A stretch of DNA of 64,000 nucleotides from Bacillota bacterium (GCA_050952125.1 JBMNKK010000003.1:7952-71951); one strand, 5' to 3'. Positions 1,630-32,000 are shown, counted from the first letter of the stretch. Notes: generated by a model not told the origin, from the letters alone. A program made the numbers and translations.

Positions 1630-2222
1630 CGTGGATTCCCCCGTTCATAGATGTCGTTGCCTTTGACGTCGATCCCGACTATTGCCGGGAAGTTTTCGAT
1701 CTCCAGCCGGTATATCGCTTCCGGCCCGAGATCGGGGTAGGCGATGAGGTCGGCCTTCTTAACGGTTCCCGATAGGAGCGCTCCGGCGCCGCCGATCGTC
1801 ACGAAGTAAGGGGCGTTGTACTTGGCTATCGCCGACATGACTTCAGCGCTGCGGCGGCCCTTGCCAATGGCCCCGCCCAGTCCTGCCGCCATGAGTCGAG
1901 GTGCGTACGCGTCCATCCTAGTGCTTGTGGTGGGCCCCAATGACCCGATGACCTGCCCGGGAGCGGGCGGGCACGGGCCGGCATAGTAGATTACCTGGTT
2001 TTTCAGCTCAAGAGGCAGCGGGAGCCCCTTATCCAGCGCTTCAACGATCCTTCTGTGAGCCGCGTCTCTCGCTGTGTAGACCACGCCCGACAAGAGGACC
2101 CGGGTCCCCATCGGCAGCGTTCTTGCTGGGTCTGCTGCCCCATCAAAGGGTACGCGAACCGGGATAGCACCCTCCCAGAAAGAGTCTGTCTTAGCCACAG
2201 TCGGCCACCTCCTCGCCTTCAA
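1626..2222 (-). CDS. Class I fumarate hydratase / Fe-S hydro-lyase beta subunit (FumB/TtdB-like).
   Basis: Typical beta-subunit sequence of two-subunit class I fumarase/tartrate dehydratase. Overlaps the upstream alpha subunit by 32 nt and the downstream gene by 4 nt, consistent with operon coupling. Confidence 0.8.
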   Translation of the reverse strand: MKARRWPTVAKTDSFWEGAIPVRVPFDGAADPARTLPMGTRVLLSGVVYTARDAAHRRIVEALDKGLPLPLELKNQVIYYAGPCPPAPGQVIGSLGPTTSTRMDAYAPRLMAAGLGGAIGKGRRSAEVMSAIAKYNAPYFVTIGGAGALLSGTVKKADLIAYPDLGPEAIYRLEIENFPAIVGIDVKGNDIYERGNPR

Positions 2223-3063: not shown

Positions 3064-3115
3064 ACAAGAGTCACCTGCTTCCTAGATATGTTTGGCGTGC
3101 GCGGCAACCGGCCGC

Positions 3116-5825: not shown

Positions 5826-5881
5826 GGGACCTTCCTCCTAAGTATGTTTTCTCGCCTTCGGCGTTCCCCACACAGTAAGTC

Positions 5882-5897
5882 AAGCAAACTTCATGCC
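5882..5897 (-). promoter_or_regulatory. Sigma-54 (-24/-12) promoter on the minus strand: TGGCAT-gaagt-TTGCT (rc of plus 5882-5897), about 57 nt upstream of the lyase ATG.
   Basis: Seen in sequence. Exact TGGCAY-N5-TTGCW spacing; an EBP gene lies immediately divergent. Confidence 0.55.
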
Positions 5898-6184
5898 ATT
5901 GGGCGCGTGTCCCATTTCTGAAACTCGCACCTTCCCGCACAGAGACCGTTGCTGTATGATGAAAGGTGTCGAATCAGCGCAGGTACGGCTGGAAGAACGG
6001 ATGGTGACCCCAAATTAAAGCGGAATCGGACAGGCTATGGGCCAGGCAGGCGCTTGAACTCGCATCAAAAGCCCTGCACAGAGATATTGGAGTTCTGGAC
6101 CCATCTTTTGATCTCATTTTTGGGACAGGCGCCTTTTCGCCCGACTCCGATACTTCGAAATGGCGTCGTGAGTGCCGGGAAGCA

Positions 6185-7726
6185 GTGAAGAGACATGCGG
6201 GAAAGGCGCGCTTTTCGTCTGAGATCTCGTTTGGTTCGGGCGGGAAGGTGGCGGTTGACCTCCTGGTTCAGCCCGGAGGCTCCATCGTGGTACTGGGGCC
6301 CGCTCCAGATGACGAACAGCACTCGAACGGCAACATGGCGACTATTCTGAGTCTGCTTGGAGAGGCCATCCTCAGACTCAGCACTGAAAATGAGCGCATC
6401 TCCTCCTTTGACGGTCCGGCGGTGATTCTGGAGAAGTCGCTGGACGAGATAGGGGCGGGGTTCATCTTCATAGACCAGGCGGGTCAAGTTCTGGCGAGGA
6501 GCCAGTGGCTTTCCAGCGCCATGCCCGAAGGCAAGACTCTGTACGATATGTTGGATCCAAAGAGCTTGTCGAAACTAGATTTCACTCGCATTTCACGCGC
6601 GACGATTCCCATCTCTCTCAATGGGAACCCGCAGCTCTGCGACGTATCTCTGCTCCCGTTTTCGCTTGCCGGCTCCAGGATCAAGTGGGTCGCGCTCATT
6701 AGGAGGCACGGAGTCCCTGCATCCGCACAGCCGGCCAGCACCGCAGCGACCGGCGCAGATGAGCCGGCACTGGTTGGCAGTTCCCAGGTGGCCCAACGGA
6801 TGAAAACTGAGCTCACCAAGGCGGCCTCAATCGACAGCACAGTATTGCTAACCGGGGAAACGGGGACGGGGAAGAGCCTTGCGGCTCGTTGGATCCACGC
6901 CCGGGGTGCCCGCCGAACAGGACCGTTTGTGGCTGTAAACTGCAGCGCACTCCCTCCGTCACTTATCGAGAGCGAGCTTTTCGGCTACGAAGAGGGGGCC
7001 TTCACGGGTGCAAAGCGAGGCGGGAAACCCGGCAAATTCGAGCTCGCCAACAAAGGGACCATCCTGCTCGATGAAGTAGGCGATCTCCCTTTGGAGATGC
7101 AAGGCAAGCTCTTGCAGGTTCTCGACCTGGGTGAGATCGATAGGATAGGCGGGCGCGAGCCCAAGAAGGTAAATGCCCGGGTTATTGCCGCCACCAACAA
7201 AGACCTATCCGCACAGGTAAAGGCCGGCGCTTTTCGAGCCGACCTCTTCTTCCGCCTTGGCGTCATCTCAATAGAGATACCGGCTCTGCGCGACCGGCTC
7301 GAAGACCTGCCCGACTTGGTGGCGCATTTCATCGAACACCTTGGACAAAAGACGGGAAGAACGGCCCTTAGCATATCGGATGAAGCCCTTGCCCTTCTCC
7401 AGGGATATTCTTGGCCCGGCAACATAAGGGAACTGGCCAATGCGGTGGAGTACGCAATGGTGTTCTGCGAATCTGACACAATAGAGCCTGAACACTTACC
7501 GCTCAGAGTGTCTGCTAACAATGCAATTGAGACAAGGCCCGTCTACAGCCTGGAAGAAGCCGAGCGCAGGGAGATCGCCAAATGTGTCGCCAGCTTTGGC
7601 CTTTCCGAGGAAGGTAAACGCAAGATAGCGGAGGCTCTAGGCGTATCCAGGAGCACAGTCTACAGGAAGCTCAATAAGTACGGGTTTACCGCTGCCCCCA
7701 AGGCGAGTAGGCGGTCTCATAATTGA
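6185..7726 (+). CDS. Sigma-54-dependent transcriptional activator (bacterial enhancer-binding protein): N-terminal sensory region of unknown type, central AAA+ domain, C-terminal Fis-type HTH.
   Basis: Walker A GETGTGKS, GAFTGA motif (EGAFTGA), ESELFG, and a C-terminal HTH (VSRSTVYRKL). The true start may be downstream (e.g. Met at about 6335), because the first 50 aa are atypical. Confidence 0.9.
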   Translation: MKRHAGKARFSSEISFGSGGKVAVDLLVQPGGSIVVLGPAPDDEQHSNGNMATILSLLGEAILRLSTENERISSFDGPAVILEKSLDEIGAGFIFIDQAGQVLARSQWLSSAMPEGKTLYDMLDPKSLSKLDFTRISRATIPISLNGNPQLCDVSLLPFSLAGSRIKWVALIRRHGVPASAQPASTAATGADEPALVGSSQVAQRMKTELTKAASIDSTVLLTGETGTGKSLAARWIHARGARRTGPFVAVNCSALPPSLIESELFGYEEGAFTGAKRGGKPGKFELANKGTILLDEVGDLPLEMQGKLLQVLDLGEIDRIGGREPKKVNARVIAATNKDLSAQVKAGAFRADLFFRLGVISIEIPALRDRLEDLPDLVAHFIEHLGQKTGRTALSISDEALALLQGYSWPGNIRELANAVEYAMVFCESDTIEPEHLPLRVSANNAIETRPVYSLEEAERREIAKCVASFGLSEEGKRKIAEALGVSRSTVYRKLNKYGFTAAPKASRRSHN

Positions 7727-7783
7727 TATCTCATGTCTCAAGCGTGAGACATGCAGACCACAACTCACTCATATTCTCCCGTC

Positions 7784-7804
7784 TCGTAGAACGCGTATCT
7801 ACGA
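7784..7804. promoter_or_regulatory. Inverted repeat TCGTAGA-N7-TCTACGA about 100 nt upstream of the plus-strand sigma-54 promoter; candidate enhancer (UAS) for the EBP.
   Basis: Perfect 7-bp arms seen in sequence. Placement is typical for EBP binding sites. Confidence 0.3.
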
Positions 7805-7887
7805 AACATGCATCGTTCGGCTCCTGATCCTATGTATTAGGCTCGCCAACGCTCCTCTCCAAATTTCCTATCCTCACGATTTCATCT

Positions 7888-7903
7888 CGGCACGCTTCTT
7901 GCT
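7888..7903 (+). promoter_or_regulatory. Sigma-54 (-24/-12) promoter cGGCACG-cttc-TTGCT upstream of the UxaA-type operon.
   Basis: Matches TGGCACG-N4-TTGCW in all positions except the first T. Followed by a GGGAGG RBS (7921-7926) and a GTG start at 7936. Confidence 0.6.
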
Positions 7904-7935
7904 ACATGAGAGGGCGAGAGGGGAGGTGTTCAATC

Positions 7936-8235
7936 GTGGCACATGCCATCGCGCTCAGCGAGAAGGACAACACGGCAACCGCTTTGAGCGATCTTCAAGC
8001 GGGCCTCAGGCCGGTCATTAATGGACCTACTCGATTCCAAGGGATCGAACTGAAAGATGAAATACCGTTTGGCCACAAGTTTGCTTTGGTACCCATCGGC
8101 CTCGGCGAGGAGGTCGTGAAGTACGGCGAGGTCATCGGTATAGCCAGCAAGAGTATCGATGCCGGCGAGTACGTTCACGTTCACAACGTTGTGAGCCGGC
8201 GGGGAAGAGGCGACTTGGAGGTCTCTGAAGCATGA
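7936..8235 (+). CDS. UxaA/GarD-family dehydratase N-terminal SAF-domain small subunit (about 100 aa). The ORF track calls it from 7906, but a GTG at 7936 with an RBS is more likely the start.
   Basis: VVKYGEVIGIASKSIDAGEYVHVHNV matches the SAF/altronate-dehydratase N-terminal motif (…G…IG.A…I..GE.VH.HN). Its stop overlaps the start of the large subunit (ATGA). Confidence 0.7.
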   Translation: MAHAIALSEKDNTATALSDLQAGLRPVINGPTRFQGIELKDEIPFGHKFALVPIGLGEEVVKYGEVIGIASKSIDAGEYVHVHNVVSRRGRGDLEVSEA

Positions 8236-9404
8236 TCCTGAGTGATAGATTCCTGGGGTACAAGAGAGAGAATGGCTCGATAGGGGTACGCAATTACGTA
8301 GGCGTCCTGGCATGCTCGGCGTGCGCTGTTCCTGCTGCAAGGCGCATATCCGAAGCGGTGAACGGCACGGCGTTGTTTACCCACAATCAGGGTTGCTGCG
8401 CGGCCGACGCCGACCTCGAAGCGACGAGGCGCACTCTGGTGTCACTTGCGCTCAATCCCAACCTCCATTCCGTCCTCTTCGTAGCCCTGGGTTGTGAGGG
8501 CCTGCCTGTTGAGCAGATCGTGGAAGAGACCTGCCTTGCCGGAAAGCATGCTGAACTAATAAGTGTAGAGAACTGCGGCGGCACGTCGCTCGCGGTTGCG
8601 CAGGGGACCTTCAGAGCCGAAGAGATGGTTGTCGAGGCATCACGTGCTGAGCGGTGCGAAGCAAGCCTCAGCGACCTGACTATCGGCATCAAATGCGGTG
8701 ACTCCGACGCGATCTCCGGTTTGGGCGCAAACCGCGTGGTGGGCCATGTAGTCGACTCTCTGGTTGCCAAGGGGTGCACTTGTCTTGTCACCGAGGTCAC
8801 AGAGCTCATCGGCGCTGAACACGTCCTGGCGCGCCGCGCAGTGGACGCTATCGTGTCGAGAAAGATCGTAGATGCTGTCGAGACTATGGAGCGGCGTCTC
8901 GCTGCCCACGGTGTCCATCCTCGGAGCGCGGGCGTATCGATCGCGGATGTGTCGGGCGGCCTTACCACAATCGAGGAGAAGTCGTTGGGCGCTCTGACAA
9001 AGACCGGCACCTGCCCTGTCTCAGGCGTGTATCCGTACGGCGAAAGAGTCACGGGTAAAGGACTCATGCTGATTGACGGACCCGGCCGTGAGCCTGAGGC
9101 TCTTACTGCGCTGGCAGCCGGCGGAGCCCACGTGATCCTTTTCACAACAGGTCATGGATCCCCTCAAGGGTTCCCGTTCGTCCCCGTCCTCAAGATCACG
9201 GGCAATCTGCGGAGCTACAAACGAGCCAAGAGCCACATAGATGTCTCGGTATGTGATGTCCTGGACGCCTGGCCCAACGTGGACGAAGCTGCGGCAGGCA
9301 TCGAGAGGGAAGTTATCGCGGTATCTTCCGGCAAGAGAACCCGCGCCGAAGTCACCGGATACTACGAATGCACTGACATATACACGACGGGACTCGTATT
9401 CTGA
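8232..9404 (+). CDS. UxaA family hydrolase, large (C-terminal-domain) subunit, paralogue 1.
   Basis: Characteristic FLGYKRENGSIGVRN start and a Cys-rich metal site (GCCAAD, GCEG). 390 aa. Confidence 0.8.
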   Translation: MILSDRFLGYKRENGSIGVRNYVGVLACSACAVPAARRISEAVNGTALFTHNQGCCAADADLEATRRTLVSLALNPNLHSVLFVALGCEGLPVEQIVEETCLAGKHAELISVENCGGTSLAVAQGTFRAEEMVVEASRAERCEASLSDLTIGIKCGDSDAISGLGANRVVGHVVDSLVAKGCTCLVTEVTELIGAEHVLARRAVDAIVSRKIVDAVETMERRLAAHGVHPRSAGVSIADVSGGLTTIEEKSLGALTKTGTCPVSGVYPYGERVTGKGLMLIDGPGREPEALTALAAGGAHVILFTTGHGSPQGFPFVPVLKITGNLRSYKRAKSHIDVSVCDVLDAWPNVDEAAAGIEREVIAVSSGKRTRAEVTGYYECTDIYTTGLVF

Positions 9405-9430
9405 GCAGTTTCGGAATCGGCAGTCGGACA

Positions 9431-10615
9431 ATGGGGGAAGAGGAATTGGCGGCCACACGGTTTTTAGGATATGCAAGACCAGACGGGTCGATAGGTGTCA
9501 GGAACTCGACCGCAGTCATGTCCGCGGTTATGTGTGCCAACGAGGTAACCGAGGACATTGCCAAAGGTATTGATGGAGCCATCGCTGTTGTCCACGGCCA
9601 TGGATGTTGCCAGCTGCCTCCCGACCTGGCACTTGTCCAGCGGACGCTCATAAACATCGGCAAGAACCCCAACATCGCCAACGTCATTTTGGTGTCTTTG
9701 GGCTGCGAGGGCGTAGACCCGGACGCCGTCGCCCAAGAACTCACCGCCGCTGGCAAGGCTGTGGAGGTGATTAGGATCCAGGAGGAAGGCGGCACTCTTC
9801 CTGCCACCGAGAGAGGGCGCCGCGTCTGCGAGAAGTGGAGGTCTCTGGCATCTAAAGTAGAGCGTGCCAGCTTTGACGCCACCGAACTCACGATAGGTAT
9901 CAAGTGTGGTTCGTCAGATACCACCTCAGGCCTAATCTGCAATCCATCCGTCGGCAGGCTGACGGACCGGTTCGTCGCCGAAGGCGGGACAGTGATCTTC
10001 GGCGAAACCACTGAGTTTATCGGAGCCGAGCACCTTTTGGCGCAGCGGGGATGCACGCCCGAAGTGAAGGCTGCGATACCAAAGATCGTCGCCGAGATGG
10101 AAGAGCGTTGCCTCACCATGAAGGTGGACATGCGTACAGGGCAGCCCACTCCGGGAAACATCAGGGGTGGCCTCACCACGATTGAGGAGAAGTCGCTGGG
10201 CGCGATATCGAAGTCGGGAACCGGCAAGATAAAAGGCGTCCTCGAGTACGGCGAACGCCCACAGTCTAAAGGCCTATTCATCATGGACAGCCCGGGAAGG
10301 GAACCTGAACTGCTCACCGGACTTGCGGCATCGGGCTGCTCCATAGTGCTCTTCACAACGGGGCGGGGTGCTCTGCAGGGTCATCCCGTCGTTCCTGTGA
10401 TCAAGATCACGGGCAACGAGCGCACCGCCCAACACCTCGCCAGTCACATGGATGTGGATGTCAGCGCGGCCCTGACAAGACACGCATCCCTGGACGAAAT
10501 GGCTGATCTCATATGGAGCAAGATCGTGGATGTTGCTTCGGGTACCCTCACCAAGGCCGAGATTCACGGTTGCGGACGATTCATGAACATCTATGTGAAA
10601 GGTCCCATTATCTAA
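9431..10615 (+). CDS. UxaA family hydrolase, large subunit, paralogue 2 (tandem duplicate of the previous gene).
   Basis: FLGYARPDGSIGVRN start, and GCEG, GIKCGSSD and TTIEEKSLGA blocks co-linear with paralogue 1. 394 aa. Confidence 0.8.
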   Translation: MGEEELAATRFLGYARPDGSIGVRNSTAVMSAVMCANEVTEDIAKGIDGAIAVVHGHGCCQLPPDLALVQRTLINIGKNPNIANVILVSLGCEGVDPDAVAQELTAAGKAVEVIRIQEEGGTLPATERGRRVCEKWRSLASKVERASFDATELTIGIKCGSSDTTSGLICNPSVGRLTDRFVAEGGTVIFGETTEFIGAEHLLAQRGCTPEVKAAIPKIVAEMEERCLTMKVDMRTGQPTPGNIRGGLTTIEEKSLGAISKSGTGKIKGVLEYGERPQSKGLFIMDSPGREPELLTGLAASGCSIVLFTTGRGALQGHPVVPVIKITGNERTAQHLASHMDVDVSAALTRHASLDEMADLIWSKIVDVASGTLTKAEIHGCGRFMNIYVKGPII

Positions 10616-10653
10616 AGGATCCGGAGAAACCACAATCAGGAGGATGAAAAGCA

Positions 10654-11622
10654 GTGTCTAGGAGATTGACTCTCAGAGTCGTAGCATGTTTCGTTCTACT
10701 TGCAGGCATCCTGCTCTCCGCATGTACTCCCAAAGAATCCGAGGCACCGGCGTACCCGTCAAAGGGTCTCGAATTCGTAGTACCCTTCGCCGCAGGCGGA
10801 GCAGTTGACCTGACCAGCCGTATACTCTGCACCGAAGTTGAGAAGACGCTCGGCCAGAAGTTCACCATTGCCAACAAACCCACAGGTGGAGCTGTGGAAG
10901 GCCTAAGCTACGTTGCCCGCGCCGCGGCCGACGGCTATACGCTCGGTGCCGCGACTTCGTCACTGGTCACCAACATCCTTACCAAGGACGTCGACTTCAC
11001 TCTCGATTCCTACGATCCTATCGCCATGTACTCTTTTGACCCCATGGTGTTTGTCGTCAACGCGGATTCTCCGTGGGAGAGTCTCGATGAAGTGGTTGAG
11101 GCCTCCAAGACCCAGTCGCTGGCTGCTTCCACTCCCGGCCTTGCCAACTCAAAGCACATCGCAGGTATGCTCTTCGAGCAGGAATCCGGAGCGAAATTCA
11201 CCTACGTGCATACCGGCGGAGCCAGTGAAGGCGTTCCCATGCTGGCCGGCGGGCACGTCCAGGTCGGTTGCTGGTCTTGGGGCGAGGTAAAAGCGATGGT
11301 AGACGCCGGCAAACTCCGGGTACTCGGTGTCATGTCAGAAGAGCGCGACGAGAGAATACCCGATGTCCCGACCTTCAAAGAGCAGGGATATGACCTGGTC
11401 TACGGCGCATGGCGTGGAATCGCGGCCCCCAAGGGACTGCCCGACGATGTCAAGGCGACGCTGACCAAAGCGTTTGGAGACGCTATCCAGAATCCTGACG
11501 TTGTGAAGCAGTTGAAGGATGCCGGCTTCCCGGTCCTTTACAAGGACGCTGAGGGCTTCTGGGATTTTGTCAAGGCTGACTACGACTACGTAAAGGCGAT
11601 CCTCGAGACGCTGGAGGACTAG
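10654..11622 (+). CDS. tctC: Tripartite tricarboxylate transporter substrate-binding lipoprotein TctC (Bug family).
   Basis: Signal peptide plus LLSAC lipobox. TctC-family sequence throughout (PGGAVD..., ...GTPGLANSKHIAG). Confidence 0.8.
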   Translation: MSRRLTLRVVACFVLLAGILLSACTPKESEAPAYPSKGLEFVVPFAAGGAVDLTSRILCTEVEKTLGQKFTIANKPTGGAVEGLSYVARAAADGYTLGAATSSLVTNILTKDVDFTLDSYDPIAMYSFDPMVFVVNADSPWESLDEVVEASKTQSLAASTPGLANSKHIAGMLFEQESGAKFTYVHTGGASEGVPMLAGGHVQVGCWSWGEVKAMVDAGKLRVLGVMSEERDERIPDVPTFKEQGYDLVYGAWRGIAAPKGLPDDVKATLTKAFGDAIQNPDVVKQLKDAGFPVLYKDAEGFWDFVKADYDYVKAILETLED

Positions 11623-11647
11623 GCAAGCCTAGTAGATAGCAAAGGAG

Positions 11648-12904
11648 ATGACGGGTGTGGCTCTACCGCGGCTCTTTCCTATACGGCAGAGGTTTGTCAA
11701 CAGGGCGCTGCCTGATGTGTCTAAGGCGACAGAAGAGGCTTTCCTGCGATCCCACGTGCTCGATGCACTCTTGCCCGGACAGTCGGTAGCGGTATGCGTG
11801 GGGAGCAGGGGAATCTCAAATCTAGCTGAGATAGTGAAGAAGACCGTCGACCTGGTCCGTGCCAGAGGAGCCACCCCCTTCATCGTACCCGCCATGGGCA
11901 GCCATGGCGGGGGCAACGCAGAAGGGCAGACGCATCTCCTCGATCACTACGGGATTTCCGAGGCGAGCATGGGATGCGCTGTAAAGGCCGATATGTCAAC
12001 CACAGAGGTCGGACGCAGTCCCGAAGGCATAAGAGCGTACGTATCTAACGAGGCTCTTAAGGCGGATCACATTATCGCAGTTAACCGAGTAAAACCGCAT
12101 ACCGAGTTCGAAGGCGCGATTGAGAGCGGCATTCTGAAGATGCTCTGCATTGGCCTGGGTAAGTTGGACGGTGCCCAGCATTACCACAGCATCGGGATGA
12201 GGCTTGGCTTCGAGCACACGTTGCGTACCGGAGGCAGGTTGGTGCTGGACAATGCACCGGTCCTGTGCGGGCTAGCTATTGTTGAGGACTCATACGATCA
12301 GACCGCCATCATCGAGGCGCTCCGTCCTGATGGCCTGGAAGCAAGAGAAGAAGAGTTGTTGAAACTAGCGAAAAGTTGGGTTCCTAAGCTGCCCTTTGAC
12401 GAGGCTGATGTCCTTATCGTGAACCAGATGGGCAAGGACGTCTCGGGGACCGGAATGGACACCAAGACCGTTGGGCGTATCATGAGCGTCTACGCGAAGG
12501 AGCCAAAGTCGCCCCGCATCACCAGAATAGCTGTTCTAGACGCAAGTGAAGGGAACGATGGAAACCTTCTCGGGATAGGGCTTGCGGATTTCACGACGGA
12601 AAGGCTCGTCTCCAAGATGGATCCCGCGAAGGTGCACCTGAATGCCACAGCGGCACTCACCCCGGAAAAGGCCCGCGTGCCAATGTGGTTTTCATCTGAT
12701 ATTGAGCTGTTCAAGACGTGTTTTGCCACGATAGCGCCTCTTGATCCTCTCGACCAGAAGGTGATGCGGATCCAGGATACCCGCCACCTTGAGGTAGTCT
12801 GGGTATCCGAAGCTTACCTTCCTGAGGTTAAGGGCAGACCGGATCTAGAGATAGCGGGTCCGGCCGAAGAAATGCGTTTTGACAATAACGGTCGTCTTAT
12901 CTGA
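11648..12904 (+). CDS. LarA-like / DUF2088 (lactate-racemase N-terminal-like) domain protein, inserted between tctC and tctB.
   Basis: About 420 aa with a layout reminiscent of LarA (AMGSHGG in place of the ATGTHR block, GLGKLDG...HYH). It lacks the D-x-T-R-P block of true LarA, so the functional call is tentative. Confidence 0.45.
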   Translation: MTGVALPRLFPIRQRFVNRALPDVSKATEEAFLRSHVLDALLPGQSVAVCVGSRGISNLAEIVKKTVDLVRARGATPFIVPAMGSHGGGNAEGQTHLLDHYGISEASMGCAVKADMSTTEVGRSPEGIRAYVSNEALKADHIIAVNRVKPHTEFEGAIESGILKMLCIGLGKLDGAQHYHSIGMRLGFEHTLRTGGRLVLDNAPVLCGLAIVEDSYDQTAIIEALRPDGLEAREEELLKLAKSWVPKLPFDEADVLIVNQMGKDVSGTGMDTKTVGRIMSVYAKEPKSPRITRIAVLDASEGNDGNLLGIGLADFTTERLVSKMDPAKVHLNATAALTPEKARVPMWFSSDIELFKTCFATIAPLDPLDQKVMRIQDTRHLEVVWVSEAYLPEVKGRPDLEIAGPAEEMRFDNNGRLI

Positions 12905-12907
12905 AAG

Positions 12908-13381
12908 GTGTTGATGAACGCGATGAAGATCACCCAGCTGGTGACAGGATTGGTCCTGCTCGCGCTGGTCGGGGTCATGTTCTTCACCACGACCAACATG
13001 AAGTACATGATCGGCGGAACACCGGGGCCAAGGTTCATGCCGTTGGTGCTCTCCGTTGCCTTATCGATACTCATCGTCATCTACTGGATTGAAGCCTATG
13101 CGGCCAGAAACGAAGAGCAGAAGTCGCCGTGGGACGTAAAGGCGCTCCCTAAGCCGCTGACCTTCCTCGCGATATGCATTGGACTGGTCATCCTTTGGAA
13201 CCCGTTGGGAGCTCTGCCCTCGGTGTTTCTGGCGGCTGTCGCGGAACTTAAGCTTCTGGAAAAGTGGACGTGGAAGCGCGCCCTCATGGTGTCGTTCATC
13301 ATGACCGTTTTCACCTGGGCGCTTTTTGGCAAGGCTCTCGCGATCCAGTTCCCCGCCGGCATATTGCGCGGGATCATATAG
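12908..13381 (+). CDS. tctB: Tripartite tricarboxylate transporter small membrane subunit TctB.
   Basis: 157-aa, 4-TM hydrophobic protein located between TctC and TctA. Confidence 0.65.
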   Translation: MLMNAMKITQLVTGLVLLALVGVMFFTTTNMKYMIGGTPGPRFMPLVLSVALSILIVIYWIEAYAARNEEQKSPWDVKALPKPLTFLAICIGLVILWNPLGALPSVFLAAVAELKLLEKWTWKRALMVSFIMTVFTWALFGKALAIQFPAGILRGII

Positions 13382-13396
13382 AGAGGATGAGGTGAA

Positions 13397-14899
13397 GTGG
13401 ACGTCTTAAGTCTACTGCTAAAGGGCTTCAGTGTCGCCTTAACCCCGCAGAACCTGCTTCTTTGCGCCGGCGGAGTTATCATGGGCACTCTCGTGGGAGC
13501 CCTTCCCGGAATCGGACCCACCGGCGCTGTGGCAATGCTGCTCCCGGCGACGTTCAAGATGCACCCAGCAGGCGCCCTGATCATGCTTGCCGGTATCTAC
13601 TACGGGACTCAGTACGGTGGAACGATCACATCGGTTCTGATGGGCGTGCCTGGAGAATCTGCGTCAGTCGTAACCGCGATGGACGGTTATCAGATGGCCA
13701 AGAAAGGGCGCGCGGGAGCCGCGCTGGGAATAGCCGCCATCGGTTCGTTTGTTGGCGGAACCCTAAGCGTATTGGGGCTAATGCTCGTCGGCCCCAAGCT
13801 CGCTTCGTTTGCCCTCATGTTCGGCCCTACCCAGTACTTTGCCTTAATGATGATGGCGTTCTCACTCGTCACGGCCTTCACGGGTAAGTCCACAACGAGA
13901 GGACTAATCTCGCTGGCCGTCGGAATCTTCCTATCGTTGGTGGGCCAGGATGTGATGACCGGGGCCGAGCGGTTCACCTTCGGACAGGTCGCGCTGATCG
14001 ATGGAATCAAGTTCCTTCCCGTCGGCGTCGGCATGTTCGGCTTGGCAGAGATACTTGAGGGGTTCGAGGAAGAGGAATCCTCTGACATGATTGAGGCCGA
14101 CCTGCACTGGAGGAAAGTGCTTCCCAGTAAGGCTGAGATGAAAGAGTGCGCGGGGCCGATTGCTCGCGGCACGCTCATAGGCTTCCTCTCGGGACTTCTC
14201 CCCGGTGTTGGAGCGACTATCTGCTCGTTCCTGTCGTACGGAGTTGAGCAGAGGATCTCGAAGAAACCGGAGGAGTTCGGAAAGGGTTCCCCGGCTGGGG
14301 TTGCGGCTCCTGAGACCGCCAACAACGCGTGCACCGGAGCGGCTTTTGTCCCGATGTTGAGCTTGGGTATTCCTGCGGGTGCGACTTCGGCCGTCCTTCT
14401 GGGAGCTCTCATCATGTTTGGCCTGCAGCCCGGGCCGCTTCTGTTCCAGCAGTCGCCTGACGTGGTCTGGGGCCTTATTGCCAGTATGTACATTGGCAAC
14501 GTGATGCTCGCTGTGATCAACGTGGCTTGTATCCCTGCTTTTGTGTGGATAATGGATAAGATCAAGAGTTACCTGTCCATCGTCGTACTGCTGCTGGCGA
14601 CGTTCGGCGTATACAGCTATCAGAACTCTATCGCCGACGTGTTCATAATGATCGTATTCGCGGTTGTCGGGTACCTGATGGGCAAGGTTGGAATCCCGAA
14701 GGCGCCTCTGGTCTTGGGCCTGCTGTTGGGCGGCATGGCTGAGTCAAGCCTCAGGCAAGCGCTTACGATCTCCCACGGTAGCCTTTCAATCTTCTTCGAG
14801 AGCCCCATAACCATGACTTTCCTCGCTCTCGCAGTCCTATCTTTGGGGGCGGGCCGGCTCACAAGGGGCGGAGGCAAGAAGAAGAAGGCCGAAGCGTAG
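13397..14899 (+). CDS. tctA: Tripartite tricarboxylate transporter permease TctA.
   Basis: 500 aa and polytopic; the duplicated TctA-family motif GVLPGIGPT / GLLPGVGAT is present. Confidence 0.9.
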   Translation: MDVLSLLLKGFSVALTPQNLLLCAGGVIMGTLVGALPGIGPTGAVAMLLPATFKMHPAGALIMLAGIYYGTQYGGTITSVLMGVPGESASVVTAMDGYQMAKKGRAGAALGIAAIGSFVGGTLSVLGLMLVGPKLASFALMFGPTQYFALMMMAFSLVTAFTGKSTTRGLISLAVGIFLSLVGQDVMTGAERFTFGQVALIDGIKFLPVGVGMFGLAEILEGFEEEESSDMIEADLHWRKVLPSKAEMKECAGPIARGTLIGFLSGLLPGVGATICSFLSYGVEQRISKKPEEFGKGSPAGVAAPETANNACTGAAFVPMLSLGIPAGATSAVLLGALIMFGLQPGPLLFQQSPDVVWGLIASMYIGNVMLAVINVACIPAFVWIMDKIKSYLSIVVLLLATFGVYSYQNSIADVFIMIVFAVVGYLMGKVGIPKAPLVLGLLLGGMAESSLRQALTISHGSLSIFFESPITMTFLALAVLSLGAGRLTRGGGKKKKAEA

Positions 14900-14911
14900 G
14901 GAGACTTGATG

Positions 14912-14936
14912 CGGAGCAGGGATATCCCTGCTCCGT
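14912..14936 (+). terminator. Possible weak terminator hairpin after tctA (CGGAGCAGG-gatat-CCTGCTCCG).
   Basis: 9-10 bp stem seen in sequence. The U-tract is poor, so this may be only an attenuating hairpin. Confidence 0.3.
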
Positions 14937-14973
14937 CAAAATCTGTAGGACTTTTCGTTCTGGGGGGCCACAC

Positions 14974-16239
14974 TTGCCAGTCAAAGCAATAGCCGCAACA
15001 ACATTTCTTGTTGCCTACGTACTCCTAATCCAGCACAAGGTGCGGCCACCTCTGGTGGTATGGAGCGGAGCAGCTCTGCTTCTTGCCCTCGGAGTGGTCA
15101 CGCCTCTCTCGGCTTTACAGAGCATCAACCTTAACGTCATTGGAATTGTCCTTGGAACCATGGTCCTTTCGGACCTGTTCATCCACTCCGGAGTCCCGGC
15201 GTATCTCGCGTCGGTGATGGTAACCCGGTCGGCCTCGGTCGGACAAGCCCTCCTGGCGGTGTGTATCCTGTCAGGCGTTGTTTCGGCTGCAGTTGACAAC
15301 GTGGCAACCGTGCTCATGATCGCTCCCATTGCTCTGGAGGTATCGCGTCAGCTCTGTGTTTCGCCCGTTCAGTTCCTTATAGGGATATCCGTATCGGCCA
15401 ACCTTCAGGGCGCAGGAACCATGATCGGGGACTCAACCTCCATACTGCTCGCCTCTGAAGCAGATATGACCTTCATGGACTTCTTCTGGATGGACGGCCG
15501 TCCAGGCATATTCTTCTCAGTCCAGCTGGCCGCTGTGGCAGCCTTTGTAGTTCTTCACCTGTTCTTCAGGAAGCATAAGGGGGCGTGCAGCCCGGTCCCA
15601 TGCCCGAGCGTCTCATCTTGGGTGCCTACTGTGCTCATGGTGGCCACGATGGTAACGATGGCGCTGTCGAGCTTCATTCCCGGGAGGCCCGACTGGACCG
15701 TGGGCGGCATCGCTATAGCCTATGGATTGGCGGGCCTTATCTGGAACTCGGCCGCGAAATACAAGGAAGGGAACCTGCTCAAGGACGTCGATTGGGAGAC
15801 AATCTTGCTGCTGGGCGGCCTGTTCGTCCTGATCGGGAGCCTCACGACCACCGGCCTTATCGACGACATCGCGAATCTCATCTCAACCTGGACCAGCGGC
15901 AAGGCTTTTCTAGCCTACAACATCATCGTGTGGATGTCGGTACTGCTCTCGGCGTTCGTGGACAATATCCCGTACACCATGGCTATGCTTCCTGTTGCCA
16001 AGATTCTGTCGGTAAGCATAGGGGCGTCTCCCAATCTGATGATGTTCGGACTCCTGCTCGGAACAACCCTAGGAGGGAACATCACACCCATCGGCGCGTC
16101 GGCCAACGTGGTCGCTGTATCTCTCCTTCGCAAGAACGGGCACGAGGTGTCATTCCCTGATTTCGCCCGCATTGGCTTGCCCTTTACTATCGCGGCAGTT
16201 GTGACCGGGTCTTTGCTCAACTGGGTTCTGTGGAGTTAA
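14974..16239 (+). CDS. ArsB/NhaD-superfamily (CitMHS-type) anion permease.
   Basis: 421 aa, about 12 TM, with duplicated family motifs (AAVDNVAT...; AFVDNIPYTMAM). Confidence 0.75.
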   Translation: MPVKAIAATTFLVAYVLLIQHKVRPPLVVWSGAALLLALGVVTPLSALQSINLNVIGIVLGTMVLSDLFIHSGVPAYLASVMVTRSASVGQALLAVCILSGVVSAAVDNVATVLMIAPIALEVSRQLCVSPVQFLIGISVSANLQGAGTMIGDSTSILLASEADMTFMDFFWMDGRPGIFFSVQLAAVAAFVVLHLFFRKHKGACSPVPCPSVSSWVPTVLMVATMVTMALSSFIPGRPDWTVGGIAIAYGLAGLIWNSAAKYKEGNLLKDVDWETILLLGGLFVLIGSLTTTGLIDDIANLISTWTSGKAFLAYNIIVWMSVLLSAFVDNIPYTMAMLPVAKILSVSIGASPNLMMFGLLLGTTLGGNITPIGASANVVAVSLLRKNGHEVSFPDFARIGLPFTIAAVVTGSLLNWVLWS

Positions 16240-17522
16240 TTGTCTAGGATTGGGACGATGTTCACGGCTTTGGGGAGGACGAGGATCCTGTTTGGCTTCT
16301 TCCTCTCCATCGCCATTCTTAGCGCCGATTCCAGGTCAGGTGCGCTTTCCAGCATCATTCTGGTGAGGAGTGCGGGGTCAAGCTCCCTGGTGACAATGAT
16401 TATCCTGCCCTTAGTGAGCGCCCTGGCGTAGTTGAAAGCTTTGTTGTTCCCGGCATTGAAGCCGGTCTCGGCAAACCGCTTCAGGATGTCTCTCGGGCTC
16501 TTGCCCTCGATCATCCAATCTTGGAATGTCTGGTTGCCGATGCCGTCAACGCACTCGGCGACGAGGATGAATGTGCAGTTGGAAGTTCCTAGGAGCTCGG
16601 CCACCGATAGGGCCTTTTGGGCCTGGTACAGGTCTCGGTCTCTGGGGTAACCGCCGGGGCTCGCGACAATGATGTCGGCGGGTTTGCCGATCTTGGTTTC
16701 GCTGACCTCGCGGCAGATGGCGACTCCCGCCGCGTGAGCCGCATCCAGCTCGCCGGCGACGAAAGCGATGTAGGCTTTACTAGGTGCCTGCACGGCGTTA
16801 ACGATGAACTTTACCGGAGCCAAGCGCGCCGCTTCGAGAGCGGTTTCGTGGAACGGGTTTCCTTCCATCCACCCCATGACGGGGTCATACGGGCGGATGG
16901 GGAAGGAGTGGTGCACGCGGAGGCATTCCAGGCCGGCGACGCCCGGCACGATGCTTTTCCGGCCGCCGCTGTACCCCGCAGACTGATGGGGAGCAATAAG
17001 GCCGGTGAGTATGCAGAACGTGCTCTCTGCTACCGCGCGGTTTATGCACACTGGGAGCCCGGACTTCGTCACTCCCAAAGTGACGAGAGAAGAAGTATCT
17101 CTGCAGTCGTGGGGCACCAAGCGGAACCTTTGGCAGTACTCGGAGCCAATGATCTGTTCCATCTCCGAGGCAGTCGGTTGGCGGTGACTGCCCGTGGCGA
17201 AGACGACGGTAACGTGGTCGTCGGGGACTCCGGCAGACTCAAGGCGCCGCACGAGTGCCTGCATAATCTCGATGTTGGGGCCCGGCCGGGTATGGTCATT
17301 TACAACTATAGATACCTTGTCTTTCGGAGAAACCAGGTTCTCCAGCCGGTCTGTACCTATGGGATTGTCCATGGCGTCCTCAAGAAGGTGAGGCGGAGGA
17401 GCCTTTGGGACATCCCGGCCATGATCGATTACGTCGACCGGAATGTCGTCTGGAACTTGAGCGGCCTCTTCAGATCTCCCGTAAGGGACGCGAATAGTAG
17501 GCATGGCGGGGCCCCCTTTCAA
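16236..17522 (-). CDS. larA: Nickel-pincer-nucleotide (NPN)-dependent 2-hydroxyacid racemase/epimerase, LarA family.
   Basis: All LarA hallmark blocks are present: D-H-T-R-P (NDHTRPGP), ATGSHR (His108 equivalent), PHDCRD, GGRK (NPN-tethering Lys) and RVHHSF. Confidence 0.85.
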   Translation of the reverse strand: MKGGPAMPTIRVPYGRSEEAAQVPDDIPVDVIDHGRDVPKAPPPHLLEDAMDNPIGTDRLENLVSPKDKVSIVVNDHTRPGPNIEIMQALVRRLESAGVPDDHVTVVFATGSHRQPTASEMEQIIGSEYCQRFRLVPHDCRDTSSLVTLGVTKSGLPVCINRAVAESTFCILTGLIAPHQSAGYSGGRKSIVPGVAGLECLRVHHSFPIRPYDPVMGWMEGNPFHETALEAARLAPVKFIVNAVQAPSKAYIAFVAGELDAAHAAGVAICREVSETKIGKPADIIVASPGGYPRDRDLYQAQKALSVAELLGTSNCTFILVAECVDGIGNQTFQDWMIEGKSPRDILKRFAETGFNAGNNKAFNYARALTKGRIIIVTRELDPALLTRMMLESAPDLESALRMAMERKKPNRILVLPKAVNIVPILDN

Positions 17523-17599: not shown

Positions 17600-18565
17600 G
17601 TGCAAGAGATGCAGCTACGAGACATCCAGTACGTTATAGCGGTGGCCGAGGCAAAGGGATTCTCTCGCGCAGCCGAGAGAATCCACATTAGTCAACCTGC
17701 TGTCAGCCAATCGATCCAGCGTCTCGAGGCCCGCTTGGGCGTCAAACTCTTTTACCGCGGGAGTAGCGGAGTATCCCTTACCCATGCGGGAGAGGTATTT
17801 GTCAAGCACGGAAAAGCCATAATCGCCGAGAGCGAGAGTCTCCTTCAGAGGATGGCGGAACTCAGGGAAGAGAGGGATCGTGAGCTCCGCGTGTCCGCCT
17901 CGCCGTTTTACCGGAAATGCTGGCTCGACAGAGTGCTGCCGGTGTTCTCTGAACGCCATCCCGATGTGCGCGTGAAAGTGGTCGAAGCGTTTTCGGATGA
18001 CCAGGAATCGATGCTGCAGAACGGCAAGGTTGACCTCATAGTCGTCCCTTACCTTCGCTCCATCCCGCGTGTGCACTTCCAGGAGCTGTTCTGGGATGAG
18101 ATAGCCCTCGCTGTCCCCGCCGAAAACCAGCTGAACCGCCTCCTGGAGCCGAAGAGGAAGTGTGGGCTTACTCCGGATGACCTGCGGCTGTTCTCCGGAG
18201 AAGATTTCGTCATGTACAAGGAAGGGCGCAGGATGCGCCAGAGGTCCATGGATCTCTGCCGGGAAGCCGGATTTGAGCCCAGAATTATCCTTGAAACCCA
18301 CAGCTGCGAGAGCATCAGTGAGGTCGTGCGAAGGGGTATGGGCATCGGGTTCTTGCCCATCTCCATACGGCTGCTCGGTCCGCCCGGCGAACAACCCGTA
18401 CTCTACCGGCTCCTAAGTTCGCTGGCCAAGAGATACGTGTCTATCGGGTATCTAGATGCCGGCCTCTCGAAGGCGGGCGAGCAGTTTGTGAGGACTGCCG
18501 CGGAGCTCTCCGAGACCTTTGGGGATGAGGCCGTTGCCTGGCCGGATAGCCCACAAGCGCCATAA
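17600..18565 (+). CDS. LysR family transcriptional regulator.
   Basis: N-terminal HTH (FSRAAERIHISQPAVSQSIQRLEARLGVKLF) plus a C-terminal substrate-binding domain. The start may be the Met at 17609. Confidence 0.9.
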   Translation: MQEMQLRDIQYVIAVAEAKGFSRAAERIHISQPAVSQSIQRLEARLGVKLFYRGSSGVSLTHAGEVFVKHGKAIIAESESLLQRMAELREERDRELRVSASPFYRKCWLDRVLPVFSERHPDVRVKVVEAFSDDQESMLQNGKVDLIVVPYLRSIPRVHFQELFWDEIALAVPAENQLNRLLEPKRKCGLTPDDLRLFSGEDFVMYKEGRRMRQRSMDLCREAGFEPRIILETHSCESISEVVRRGMGIGFLPISIRLLGPPGEQPVLYRLLSSLAKRYVSIGYLDAGLSKAGEQFVRTAAELSETFGDEAVAWPDSPQAP

Positions 18566-18633: not shown

Positions 18634-20616
18634 TTGACGGAAATCGGAGGAACGGGGGATGTCTCTGTGGGTAAAGGCATAGCCGAGAAAATCCTGTCAA
18701 CTCACCTTGTGAGTGAAAGCTCGGACGGCAAAGACATAGTCCTTCACGTTGATAGCACACTGATCCACGATATGTCCGGTCCCCTTGCACTCATTGGCTT
18801 TGATGCTATGGGGATTGACGATATACAGGTCGATCTGCCGGTCGCATTCATCGATCACAACCTGGTTGGGATGGACTTCAGGAGCCCTGATGATCACCTG
18901 TTCGTGACCTCGGCAGCTAAGAAATACGGGATGATGCTCTCTTCGGCGGGGAACGGCGTCTGCCACAGCGTCTACTATCACCGCCTGGGCAGGCCGGGGA
19001 CGATCCTGGTTGGGGCGGATAGCCACAGCGCGACTGCCGGTGCCTTAGGCATGCTGGGGATCGGCCTCGGAGGCCTTGATGTCTCAGCGATCATGGGCGG
19101 CGAAGATCTCACGATCGCCAGGCCTCGCATAGTCAATGTCAACCTCACCGGCAGCCTTCGACCGGGTTCCTCCGCCAAAGACGTAGCCCTCGCCTTGCTG
19201 GGGCGCCTGGGAGTGAAGGGGTGCGTCGGGGCGATAGTGGAGTACACCGGCCCCGGCGTGAAGACGCTCTCTGTCCACGAGAGAGCCACCATAGCCAATA
19301 TGGGAGCGGAGATGGGCGCTACTACCTCAGTCTTCCCCTCGGACGATGTCGTGTACCGGTTCCTGAAGGCCCAGTCCCGAGAAGCGGATTTCGTCGAGAT
19401 CCTTCCCGAGCGCGACGCTGAATACAGCCGGACGCTCACGCTTGCCCTCGACTCCGTGAGGCCGATGGTGGCCGTTCCGCCCATGCCGGACCGGGCGGTT
19501 CCCGTCGATGAAGCAGGTGAGATTCCGGTCAATCAGGTTTACATCGGGAGCTGCGTGAACGGGTCCTACGTCGATATCGCGCGCGCGGCGCTAGTCCTGC
19601 ACGGCAGGCGTGTTCATCCTGACGTCACGCTCCTGGTTTCTCCGGGCAACCGGCAGGTGTTTCAGATGCTGTTGCGCGACGGTCACATCGCTACTTTGGT
19701 GGAGGCCGGAGCCCGTATCCTTGAGTGTGGGTGCGGTCCTTGCATTGGGCTCAGCCAGGCGCCGGCTTCCGGGAGCGTTACTGTGAGGACCACCAACAGG
19801 AACTATCCCGGGCGTTCCGGCACAAAGGATGCCGGCATCTACCTTACAGGCACCGAAACCGCGGCTGCGACGGCGGTGCTTGGATACTTGGCATCCGCGG
19901 ACAAGTTGATGGACGTGGCGCTGCTGGACACGGTTCGCGACCCAGAGGTCTACCCGGTTGACGACGCCCGGATCTATCGCTATGACCTGGAGCGGATTCC
20001 GACTCCGCTGCGTTGGGGCCCGAACCTCAAGCCCATGCCGTTGAAGGAGCTCCTCGAGACCGAGTGCTCGATGAGGGTGGTGCTTAAGGTTGGGGACGAT
20101 ACGACCACCGACGACATCCTTCCTCCGGGGCCTGAGGTGCTGGGCCTGCGTCCGAATATCCCCGAGCTTTCCAAGTACCTCTTCAGCCACATAGACCCGG
20201 GGTTTTACTCCAGGGCAAGGGAATACGGAAGCAGCGTTATCGTTGGCGGCGAGAACTACGGCCAGGGTTCCAGCCGCGAGCACGCGGCCATCGGCCCCAT
20301 GTATCTGGGCGTGAAGGCCGTGCTGGTGAAGTCTATCGCGAGGATCCACAGGAGCAACCTTATCAACTACGGCATAATGCCGCTCATCTTCGACGATCCG
20401 GGAGACTACGACCGGGTATCTCAAGGAGATCTGTTGGAGATGACGGACATCCCTCAGCAATTGGGACGCGACCAGGTAGTGATCCGCAACCGGACCACCG
20501 GGCGCGAGATAGTCGCCCGGGCTCACCTCTCGCCTAAGGAGCTGGAACTGGTCAAGGTGGGCGGATTGTTCCGCTACATCCGGAACAAACGGGAGGGGGC
20601 TGCCGGTAAGAGATGA
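18634..20616 (+). CDS. Aconitase-family hydratase (fused LeuC-like and LeuD-like domains, about 650 aa), paralogue 1. The likely true start is GTG 18667, by alignment with paralogue 2.
   Basis: Fe-S ligands (SHSATAG...; GSCVNGSY; ECGCGPCIG), a swivel-domain C-terminus and ENYGQGSSREHAA. Confidence 0.85.
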   Translation: MTEIGGTGDVSVGKGIAEKILSTHLVSESSDGKDIVLHVDSTLIHDMSGPLALIGFDAMGIDDIQVDLPVAFIDHNLVGMDFRSPDDHLFVTSAAKKYGMMLSSAGNGVCHSVYYHRLGRPGTILVGADSHSATAGALGMLGIGLGGLDVSAIMGGEDLTIARPRIVNVNLTGSLRPGSSAKDVALALLGRLGVKGCVGAIVEYTGPGVKTLSVHERATIANMGAEMGATTSVFPSDDVVYRFLKAQSREADFVEILPERDAEYSRTLTLALDSVRPMVAVPPMPDRAVPVDEAGEIPVNQVYIGSCVNGSYVDIARAALVLHGRRVHPDVTLLVSPGNRQVFQMLLRDGHIATLVEAGARILECGCGPCIGLSQAPASGSVTVRTTNRNYPGRSGTKDAGIYLTGTETAAATAVLGYLASADKLMDVALLDTVRDPEVYPVDDARIYRYDLERIPTPLRWGPNLKPMPLKELLETECSMRVVLKVGDDTTTDDILPPGPEVLGLRPNIPELSKYLFSHIDPGFYSRAREYGSSVIVGGENYGQGSSREHAAIGPMYLGVKAVLVKSIARIHRSNLINYGIMPLIFDDPGDYDRVSQGDLLEMTDIPQQLGRDQVVIRNRTTGREIVARAHLSPKELELVKVGGLFRYIRNKREGAAGKR

Positions 20617-31994: not shown

Positions 31995-32000
31995 TTTCCC

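Follow-up and report, generated by a model that had tools for sequence, protein, structure and literature searches.

Introduction

Homologues of LarA form a large nickel-cofactor family in which about half of the groups, group 22 among them, are without a known reaction. Group 22 is listed as being of "unknown function"; its published gene context consists of a short-chain dehydrogenase/reductase (SDR), an IlvD/Edd dehydratase, a TRAP transporter, a sugar kinase and LarE, and its signature (A-R-H-H-T-D-K-H) keeps the two catalytic His of LarA along with its cofactor Lys and nickel His (Desguin 2020). LarA group 5 is tabulated with a COG2721 altronate dehydratase in 100% of cases and with TctC/TctA in 26%, together with GAF-AAA-Fis regulators (Desguin 2020, Table S1). 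Characterised dehydratases and lyases of the UxaA family act on altronate, galactarate, idonate, arabinonate and sulfolactate (PMC6336799), and UxaA, GarD and SuyAB share one elimination, in which a 2-hydroxy acid loses its C2 proton and a C3 leaving group and becomes a 2-oxo acid (PMC6336799). LarA-type enzymes, for their part, invert C2. SuyAB is the sole characterised heteromeric member of the superfamily, with separate small and large subunits (PMC6336799). Here we analyse a 64,000-nucleotide stretch of DNA from a Bacillota bacterium (GCA_050952125.1 JBMNKK010000003.1:7952-71951; hereafter "the window"), in which a sigma-54-type promoter precedes genes for a split SAF/UxaA-type dehydratase with two large subunits, a TctCBA transporter interrupted by a LarA-like isomerase, and an anion permease, with a canonical LarA gene converging on the array.

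We interpret the plus-strand array as a sigma-54-dependent operon for the uptake, C2 epimerisation and dehydration of a hydroxy acid. The general mechanism of import, epimerisation and elimination we regard as highly probable. The fuller proposal, in which such an operon serves a tartrate-like acid, or else a short aldarate or a hydroxy-tricarboxylate, stands in our judgement at about even chances.

Results

Is the gene that interrupts the transporter an intact member of the LarA superfamily? Open reading frames (ORFs) of the window were assigned to families by scanning Pfam and NCBIfam models, with NCBIfam scores judged against their curated cutoffs, and the order tctC-[isomerase]-tctB-tctA given in an earlier note on this DNA is the one we see. 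The isomerase covers positions 1-390 of the 392 in the NCBIfam model NF052515, "nickel pincer cofactor-dependent isomerase, group 22," and scores above its cutoff of 400 bits (Table 1). Because sequence searches of the PDB, made with the protein or with a 20-sequence profile, retrieved no LarA and only spurious matches to TAL-effector repeats, we used a fold search. All of the top 14 Foldseek matches in the PDB to an AlphaFold2 model of the protein (pLDDT 92.3, pTM 0.90) are LarA-family structures (probability 1.00, E 3e-11 to 4e-8, TM 0.43-0.57), while BLASTP finds no similarity between this protein and the canonical LarA encoded 4 kb away. Residues R54, H86, H151, K164 and H180 are invariant across 25 homologues of the protein and fit the group-22 signature (Desguin 2020); their equation with LarA R75, H108, H174, K184 and H200 relies on the Desguin 2020 table and not on side-chain superposition. 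The concern that this gene might be a degraded pseudo-paralogue can be set aside, as the protein is full length, its LarA fold is modelled with confidence, and the family-invariant Arg, two His, Lys and His are all kept in the alignment. The product is predicted to be a LarA-superfamily isomerase that uses the nickel-pincer nucleotide cofactor. One homologue from elsewhere (protein P0004, 545 aa, 58% identical) is fused to B12-binding domains (PF02607 and PF02310), an unexpected architecture for a nickel-pincer enzyme.

The dehydratase encoded upstream of the transporter has all three domains of UxaA and GarD (SAF, GD_AH_second and GD_AH_C by Pfam), with SAF on a polypeptide of its own. The SAF gene runs 4 nt into the gene for large subunit 1, and public assemblies also call the SAF gene as 99 aa. 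The two large subunits, previously described as a tandem duplication, are indeed neighbouring paralogues and are kept in tandem in a related contig, L103, where they are 81% and 77% identical to those of the window. They are only 44% identical to each other, however, and are therefore old paralogues rather than products of a recent duplication. In the public annotation large subunit 2 begins at 9518 (365 aa), which drops a conserved N-terminal RFLGY...GVRN segment (9431-9517); the 394-aa ORF aligns to subunit 1 from its residue 10, and the start appears to have been mis-called in the deposited assemblies.

Do the two large subunits look functionally alike? Large subunit 2 retains the canonical family motifs and is 50% identical to the large subunit that adjoins a group-22 LarA gene in Sporomusa termitida; its 77%-identical orthologue stands in tandem in L103. 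Large subunit 1 has AGVSIAD for GQPTPGN, KCGDSDAISG for KCGSSDTTSG and NR for NP, at motifs that at least 90-97% of 209 relatives share, and its orthologue P0122 (81% identity) carries the same derived loops. We take these loop changes to point to altered specificity, not to decay. By analogy with SuyAB, a single SAF subunit shared by two large subunits is plausible, because the SuyAB large subunit is active alone and the small subunit enhances its activity. Against the GarD equivalog model TIGR03248 the subunits score 185.4 and 218.2 bits, below the cutoff of 730.85, and the sole PDB sequence match of the large subunits is GarD (6U7L, E 9e-52). We also placed the large subunits, as the earlier note had envisaged, in a tree of the family: neighbour joining, which is distance-based and here involves long branches, puts neither of them in a functionally labelled clade.

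Could the split enzyme instead be a sulfolactate sulfo-lyase? In such a scheme TctCBA would correspond to the SlcHFG importer, a LarA racemase would replace SlcC/ComC, and SAF with the large subunits would act as SuyAB on 3-sulfolactate, releasing pyruvate and sulfite. A 99-aa SAF gene that overlaps a 390-aa large-subunit gene matches the small-plus-large architecture of SuyAB; the known sulfolactate importer is a tripartite tricarboxylate transporter (TTT), and SuyAB is R-specific, so that racemisation is required. Outside its own lineage, large subunit 1 is nearest (~50%) to proteins of sulfate reducers, some of them source-labelled as sulfolactate sulfo-lyase. Related loci pair SAF/UxaA with Ldh_2 genes (best model L-sulfolactate dehydrogenase) or with aminotransferases, but the NCBIfam scans of these neighbours, like those of enolase-superfamily neighbours, were all below cutoff and are ambiguous. 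A search of the accessible literature found no paper joining sulfolactate and lactate racemase. The cysteines argue the other way. Four cysteines that are conserved in UxaA/GarD dehydratases, and proposed as iron ligands, are reported missing from sulfolactate sulfo-lyase (Watanabe et al. 2019, PMC6336799), whereas both paralogues, like 206 of 209 relatives, keep C35, C59, C92 and C159 (numbered as in subunit 2); these cysteines were equated with the published Cys134/173/208/276 by spacing alone, not by alignment. The best non-self identity of the large subunits is at most 51%, in a comparison that included no verified SuyB, against the >70% reported within the SuyB group across phyla. Searches for a SuyB reference gave only unlabelled "UxaA family hydrolase" entries among plasmid tblastn matches, and a Cupriavidus match without annotation. 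The scanned ORFs of the window include no sulfite exporter or reductase, and malic enzyme and fumarase neighbours would be left unexplained. Taken together, sulfolactate seems to us an improbable substrate.

We next consider how the array is expressed. The earlier note had claimed a plus-strand sigma-54 promoter, and both the adjacent enhancer-binding protein and the comparison with L103 bear it out. The activator has an AAA+ Sigma54_activat domain and a C-terminal helix-turn-helix (HTH); no known sensor domain was matched in its N-terminal ~190 residues. The -24/-12 element lies ~34 nt 5' of the GTG start codon of the SAF gene, which has GAGGGGAGG just upstream. As a single match the element is not above chance, since five -24/-12-type matches occur in the window and 3.9 are expected. 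L103 has the same order of genes (activator-SAF-large1-large2-TctC) and shows TGGCACAGATCTTGC / TGGCACAGATCTTGCTA at the equivalent place, the rest of the intergenic region having diverged. Because the element is kept amid diverged intergenic DNA, we take it to be a real promoter. Both marks by which a sigma-54 operon is recognised are present here, namely a GG-N10-GC element at a suitable distance and an adjoining enhancer-binding protein.

Across the nine plus-strand genes the intergenic gaps range from -4 to 74 nt, and no terminator-like sites were found within these gaps. Judging from this spacing, the nine genes are likely to be carried on one transcript. A perfect 9-bp palindrome (CATGTCTCA-AGCG-TGAGACATG) is located at 7732-7753, just past the activator stop codon and ~135 bp upstream of the promoter. 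It occurs once in the window, is not kept in L103, and could be a terminator stem or a candidate binding site for the activator. At the other end of the array, the permease gene and the convergent LarA gene share 4 nt at their stop codons (16236-16239) with no terminator between them, an arrangement in which read-through from either gene would produce antisense RNA of the other.

All three components of the TctCBA transporter are encoded together, with the isomerase gene splitting tctC from tctB, and TctC is a probable lipoprotein with an LSAC lipobox. The last plus-strand gene of the array encodes a permease that had been described as an ArsB/NhaD type. CitMHS is the better assignment (191 versus 32 bits for ArsB), the two belonging to one broad superfamily.

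How common is the pairing of a LarA homologue with a split dehydratase? We surveyed 80 loci, retrieved with a large-subunit alignment as query and with one genome per species. A SAF gene is adjacent to the large-subunit gene in 71 of them, and a LarA-family gene stands beside the split SAF/UxaA genes in 31. Within 10 kb, group-22-type LarA genes occur in 16 of the 80 loci and canonical-type genes in 17, mostly adjacent; two loci (L071 and L094) have both types. The usual cores are LarA-SAF-UxaA or SAF-UxaA-group22. In L071 a sigma-54 activator and a malic enzyme are encoded as well, and another locus, L095, has the order malic enzyme-SAF-UxaA-LarA. Among canonical-type neighbours, lactate-racemase-like proteins (FF/W-C) can be distinguished from those with a malate-racemase signature (H-K), the window protein having Q,S / N-K at these positions.

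No other pairing locus surveyed has two large-subunit genes behind one SAF gene, or an isomerase gene between tctC and tctB (the relative L103 has SAF-large1-large2). Because LarA had already been tabulated with altronate dehydratase and Tct genes (Desguin 2020, Table S1), the pairing itself is not new. Of the unusual array that had been claimed, the association of LarA, dehydratase and Tct genes is thus known, and what remains unusual is the layout, in which a single SAF gene precedes two large-subunit genes and the isomerase gene splits the Tct set. On present gene comparisons, what is new here is the gene layout, to which the presence of both LarA types at one locus can be added, while the pairing is both known and widespread.

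Two sets of loci from these searches deserve description in their own right. A recurrent module in Clostridia/Lachnospiraceae (L036, L049, L053, L052, L029 and L048) consists of a regulator, a LarA of the FF / W-C subtype, SAF, UxaA, and a GntP or TTT transporter. Because the pocket of its LarA is small and hydrophobic and the module has no downstream genes, we suggest that it serves the racemisation and dehydration of a small acid (e.g., glycerate). On a Sulfitobacter sp. plasmid (NZ_CP136690.1, 6665-10730; L105), a LarA-domain gene and larC come directly after a fused gene of the altronate dehydratase family, and this core is surrounded by genes for an L-arabinonate dehydratase, a dihydrodipicolinate synthase (DHDPS)-family protein, an HpcH aldolase and an aldehyde dehydrogenase. 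Large-subunit matches were obtained in 47 Pseudosulfitobacter and 13 Sulfitobacter plasmid records, of which this one locus was inspected.

Does the convergent canonical LarA belong to the same unit? It had been counted as part of the sigma-54 array, a view we do not retain. The gene is divergent from a LysR-family regulator gene and has a sigma-70-like promoter of its own facing it at 17581-17553 (minus strand), and we therefore treat it as a separate unit. Its most likely start is the ATG at 17504, which has the ribosome-binding site AAAGGGGG. The 95-nt region between the LarA and LysR genes holds a GATAA-N7-TTATC dyad, and the LysR product probably regulates the LarA gene.

We aligned the canonical LarA with Mar2 (6D6Z) and LarA (6C1W/5HUQ). 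Its motifs NDHTRP, ATGSHR, APHQS, GGRKS and HHS align with LarA D72/R75, H108, H174, K184 and H200. Against models of malate racemases it scores 446.6 of a required 500 bits for NF052593 (LarAH6) and 370.3 of 462 for NF052595 (LarAH5), both below cutoff. Malate racemases have H or Q, followed by K, at the positions of LarA W358/T359, and the K binds the second carboxylate. The window protein has N-K there, keeping the Lys, and Mar2 and the LarA proteins of L071 and L095 have H-K. Characterised malate racemases also epimerise tartrate. We consider the canonical LarA a probable racemase of malate, or of a malate-like acid, that would supply malic enzyme.

What surrounds the array? The ORFs listed in the earlier note (6185-17522) were borne out by ORF calling, Pfam and NCBIfam, save for the family of the permease. 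The nine plus-strand genes and the convergent LarA are all intact, with strong family matches and no internal stops (Table 1). The window has ~58% G+C and encodes an Fe-only hydrogenase, YtxC, YunB, thrS and pheST; its source is an anaerobic, spore-forming member of the Bacillota, and the stretch is chromosomal. The locus was also found in several metagenome assemblies.

Table 1. Positions and supporting matches of the promoter elements and genes in and around the array, numbered from the first nucleotide of the window
Feature	Position	Strand	Evidence
Sigma-54-dependent activator (bacterial enhancer-binding protein)	6185-7726	+	PF00158 213.9 bits, AAA_lid_14, HTH_8/HTH_50
Sigma-54 -24/-12 element CGGCACGCTTCTTGC	7888-7902	+	Consensus fit; conservation in L103
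SAF small subunit, 99 aa	7936-8235 (or from 7906)	+	Pfam SAF; TIGR03248 positions 3-78
UxaA-family large subunit 1, 390 aa	8232-9404	+	GD_AH_second + GD_AH_C, E 1e-76
UxaA-family large subunit 2, 394 aa	9431-10615	+	GD_AH_second + GD_AH_C, E 1e-87
TctC solute-binding protein	10654-11622	+	Pfam TctC 163.9 bits
LarA-superfamily isomerase, group 22 (predicted)	11648-12904	+	NF052515 473.7 bits; weak Lar_N/DUF362 in Pfam
TctB small membrane subunit	12908-13381	+	Pfam TctB 63.9 bits
TctA large membrane subunit	13397-14899	+	Pfam TctA 515.3 bits
CitMHS-family anion permease	14974-16239	+	Pfam CitMHS 191.3, Na_sulph_symp 46.9, ArsB 32.5 bits
Canonical LarA homologue, 422 aa from ATG 17504	16236-17504 (longest ORF from 17522)	-	Lar_N + LarA_C
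LysR-family regulator	17600-18565	+	Pfam HTH_1 + LysR_substrate
Divergent operon, possibly of the same regulon	427-5898	-	Gene order below the element
Sigma-54-like element TGGCATGAAGTTTGC	5884-5898	-	Sequence match
Adenylosuccinate-lyase-like Lyase_1	4455-5825	-	Best NCBIfam model XcbD, below cutoff
MmgE/PrpD	3116-4471	-	Family match
Two-subunit class I fumarase	2191-3063, 1626-2222	-	Family match
Malic enzyme	427-1629	-	Family match

Several neighbours of the array are enzymes of C4 or tricarboxylic acids. Directly 3' of the LysR gene (18634-22541, plus strand), two aconitase-family genes overlap in tandem; their products (660 and 642 aa) both score above the PRK07229 aconitate hydratase cutoff, and with the Tct and CitMHS genes they point to tricarboxylate metabolism. 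Farther downstream (29148-32783, plus strand), the genes of an ABC importer (Peripla_BP_2, FecCD and ATPase) precede one of the DUF364/DUF4213 type, labelled "putative heavy-metal chelation," and these genes may be relevant to nickel or iron supply. A PP-loop gene at 60464-61249, considered as a possible cofactor gene, proved to be NadE.

On the other side of the activator, the minus-strand operon may split fumarate off a 2-substituted succinate. Pairs of Lyase_1 and PrpD genes also occur elsewhere: L106 has one beside a TctC gene, L022 has one that shares its operon with SAF-UxaA, and in L107 the pair belongs to a Paenibacillus cluster that also includes TTT, M20, AstE/AspA and GNAT genes. 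One may therefore ask whether both divergent sigma-54 operons form a joint pathway for a 2-substituted succinate conjugate, in which MmgE/PrpD would epimerise the succinyl carbon, Lyase_1 would free fumarate for conversion to malate and pyruvate, and the released moiety, or a related hydroxy acid, would be epimerised and beta-eliminated by LarA and SAF/UxaA. The two promoters flank a single activator gene; homologues of Lyase_1 (46%) and PrpD (38%) share one alphaproteobacterial operon with SAF and UxaA (L022), and a 73%-identical Lyase_1 is found with PrpD and its own TctC (L106). Known MmgE/PrpD enzymes act on substituted succinates, several of them as epimerases. The Paenibacillus homologue, with its TTT, M20 deacylase, AstE/AspA and GNAT genes, resembles the clusters for S-(2-succino)cysteine breakdown, which use a class I lyase and include an unassigned gene, yxeQ. 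We take YxeQ to be a member of the MmgE/PrpD family, a term not used in the S-(2-succino)cysteine paper.

Set against such a joint pathway, a Lyase_1 homologue occurs in only 1 of the 80 SAF/UxaA loci, and 10 kb away. The second promoter is a single match (5884-5898), unconserved and at chance frequency, and the region 5' of the L106 Lyase_1-PrpD homologues showed no conserved sigma-54 element. Moreover, no specific conjugate can be named. We judge a pathway shared by the two operons to be very unlikely.

Discussion

How might the operon work? The enhancer-binding protein would switch on the sigma-54-dependent catabolic operon at 7936-16239. The TctC lipoprotein with TctB/TctA, and probably the CitMHS permease too, would import an anionic 2,3-dihydroxy acid. 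The group-22 LarA homologue would invert C2 by transient hydride transfer to the nickel-pincer cofactor and would thereby bring the imported stereoisomers to the form or forms open to the dehydratases. SAF with either iron-dependent large subunit would then remove the C2 proton and the C3 hydroxyl to give a 2-oxo acid. The two large subunits would probably serve two stereoisomers or two related substrates. Co-transcription, the order of the reactions, cofactor use and the substrate are the parts of this scheme that we infer. The logic of uptake, epimerisation and dehydration under sigma-54 control had been proposed in the earlier note, and it fits the gene content, the 31 of 80 pairing loci and a plasmid locus of S. 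termitida (pSPTER, described below).

Which acid, then, is the substrate? Tartrate isomers (C4 aldarates) would give oxaloacetate, and hydroxycitrate would give oxalosuccinate. Malate, formerly among the candidates for the elimination, was rejected, as an elimination of the kind known from UxaA, GarD and SuyAB would need a leaving group on C3, which malate lacks. A C4-type substrate can be put forward only tentatively. In a more detailed version, the TTT imports a tartrate-type acid, a short aldarate or a hydroxy-tricarboxylate, the group-22 protein epimerises it at C2, and the UxaA pair is stereo-complementary, yielding oxaloacetate or oxalosuccinate, with one member having a remodelled active-site loop. 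As a whole, we hold this version to be doubtful.

The principal competitor is a sugar acid of greater length, for instance galactarate, glucarate, a pentarate or another C5/C6 aldonate or aldarate. Here the group-22 protein would again be the C2-epimerase, the UxaA pair would produce a 2-keto-3-deoxy acid, and the downstream kinase/aldolase or KdgD/KGSADH enzymes would be encoded elsewhere in the genome. The characterised UxaA-family dehydratases all act on C5/C6 sugar acids (PMC6336799). Split SAF/UxaA genes are found in aldarate-/pentonate-type clusters of Priestia megaterium, and with a 2-keto-3-deoxygluconate (KDG) permease in E. albertii, while the clusters of S. termitida and L070 add galactonate-dehydratase-like enolase-superfamily genes. 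Group-22 loci in Bacillaceae and others hold IlvD/Edd, TRAP, DHDPS-family, fumarylacetoacetate hydrolase (FAH) and aldehyde dehydrogenase genes, as in Table S1 of Desguin 2020. Around the operon itself the picture differs. Among the scanned ORFs of the 64-kb window there was no keto-deoxy-acid kinase, aldolase or dehydratase, and no KdgD, FAH or KGSADH; the transporters are TTT and CitMHS rather than GntP, MFS or TRAP, and the closest neighbours are C4-acid enzymes. We think a longer sugar acid rather unlikely, yet still a serious rival. A short di- or tricarboxylic hydroxy acid is preferred because keto-deoxy-acid enzymes are absent from the scanned ORFs, the transporters are of di-/tricarboxylate type, and the neighbours include malic enzyme, fumarase, a malate-racemase-like LarA and aconitase-family genes.

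Several observations weigh against a short tartrate-like acid. We know of no UxaA-family enzyme with demonstrated activity on tartrate. The neighbour-joining tree groups neither large subunit with a clade of clear function, group-22 neighbourhoods elsewhere are mostly of the C5/C6 sugar-acid kind just described, and the closest group-22 homologues (61-46% identity) sit in contexts unlike the window and unlike each other. Finally, larB, larC and larE were not found among the scanned ORFs of the window.

What would follow if the proposal holds? Group 22 is sizeable, with >7,900 relatives scored in one search, and the locus is a good entry point for assigning its function. Group-22 and canonical LarA genes recur beside the split UxaA-type enzymes, which narrows the substrates to be tested to a short list, and an epimerase followed by a dehydratase that yields a keto acid amounts to a ready coupled assay. 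The lineage of large subunit 1, with its rebuilt conserved loop, may have a new specificity. Were the detailed version above to prove right, LarA group 22 would gain its first function and the UxaA family its first dehydratase of tartrate type, one that would tolerate oxygen where the Fe-S TtdAB and fumarase-type tartrate dehydratases are the known alternatives. With a tartrate-like substrate the locus would represent a new anaerobic route for plant and wine acids; otherwise it would be an ordinary organic-acid catabolic operon.

Comparison with Known Systems

How does the locus compare with the systems closest to it? The window isomerase shares with group 22 (NF052515) a full-length match, the signature and the fold, but it sits inside tctCBA beside UxaA-type dehydratases instead of in the published group-22 context. 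To our knowledge, no group-22 member has a demonstrated reaction. LarA group 5, or Mar1-type, loci combine the same families (a LarA homologue, a UxaA dehydratase, a TTT and a sigma-54-type activator). They differ in that the in-operon isomerase of the window belongs to group 22, that two large subunits accompany one SAF, and that the canonical LarA of the window is nearest to the LarAH6 model (below cutoff) and is probably transcribed separately.

The S. termitida pSPTER locus has the order MR/MLE-TctC-TctB-TctA-LarA-like-SAF-UxaA-GntR, and as in the window a TTT, a group-22 isomerase and split SAF/UxaA genes lie on one strand. Identities to the window proteins are 39% for the isomerase, 50% for large subunit 2 and 33% for TctC. 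Unlike the window, pSPTER has a GntR regulator rather than a sigma-54 system, only one large subunit and an additional dehydratase of the enolase superfamily, and its isomerase gene comes after tctA, whereas that of the window interrupts the transporter genes. We also considered whether the pSPTER LarA might be LarAH62, a malate racemase that has been characterised; since the locus lacks a match to the published primer and the protein is of group-22 type, this identification was rejected.

The SuyAB system, with SlcHFG and SlcC/ComC, shares with the window small SAF-type and large UxaA-type subunits, TTT uptake, and a need for the stereoisomers of a malate-like 2-hydroxy acid to be interconverted ahead of beta-elimination. 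The window departs from it in keeping the four cysteines, in its ~50% identity to the homologues of sulfate reducers and in having no sulfite-handling genes; moreover, the SuyAB system racemises by means of two dehydrogenases, where the window would use a nickel-pincer enzyme. With GarD and UxaA, the window enzymes have the same Pfam domains and presumably the same elimination chemistry in common, but GarD and UxaA are single polypeptides to which SAF is fused.

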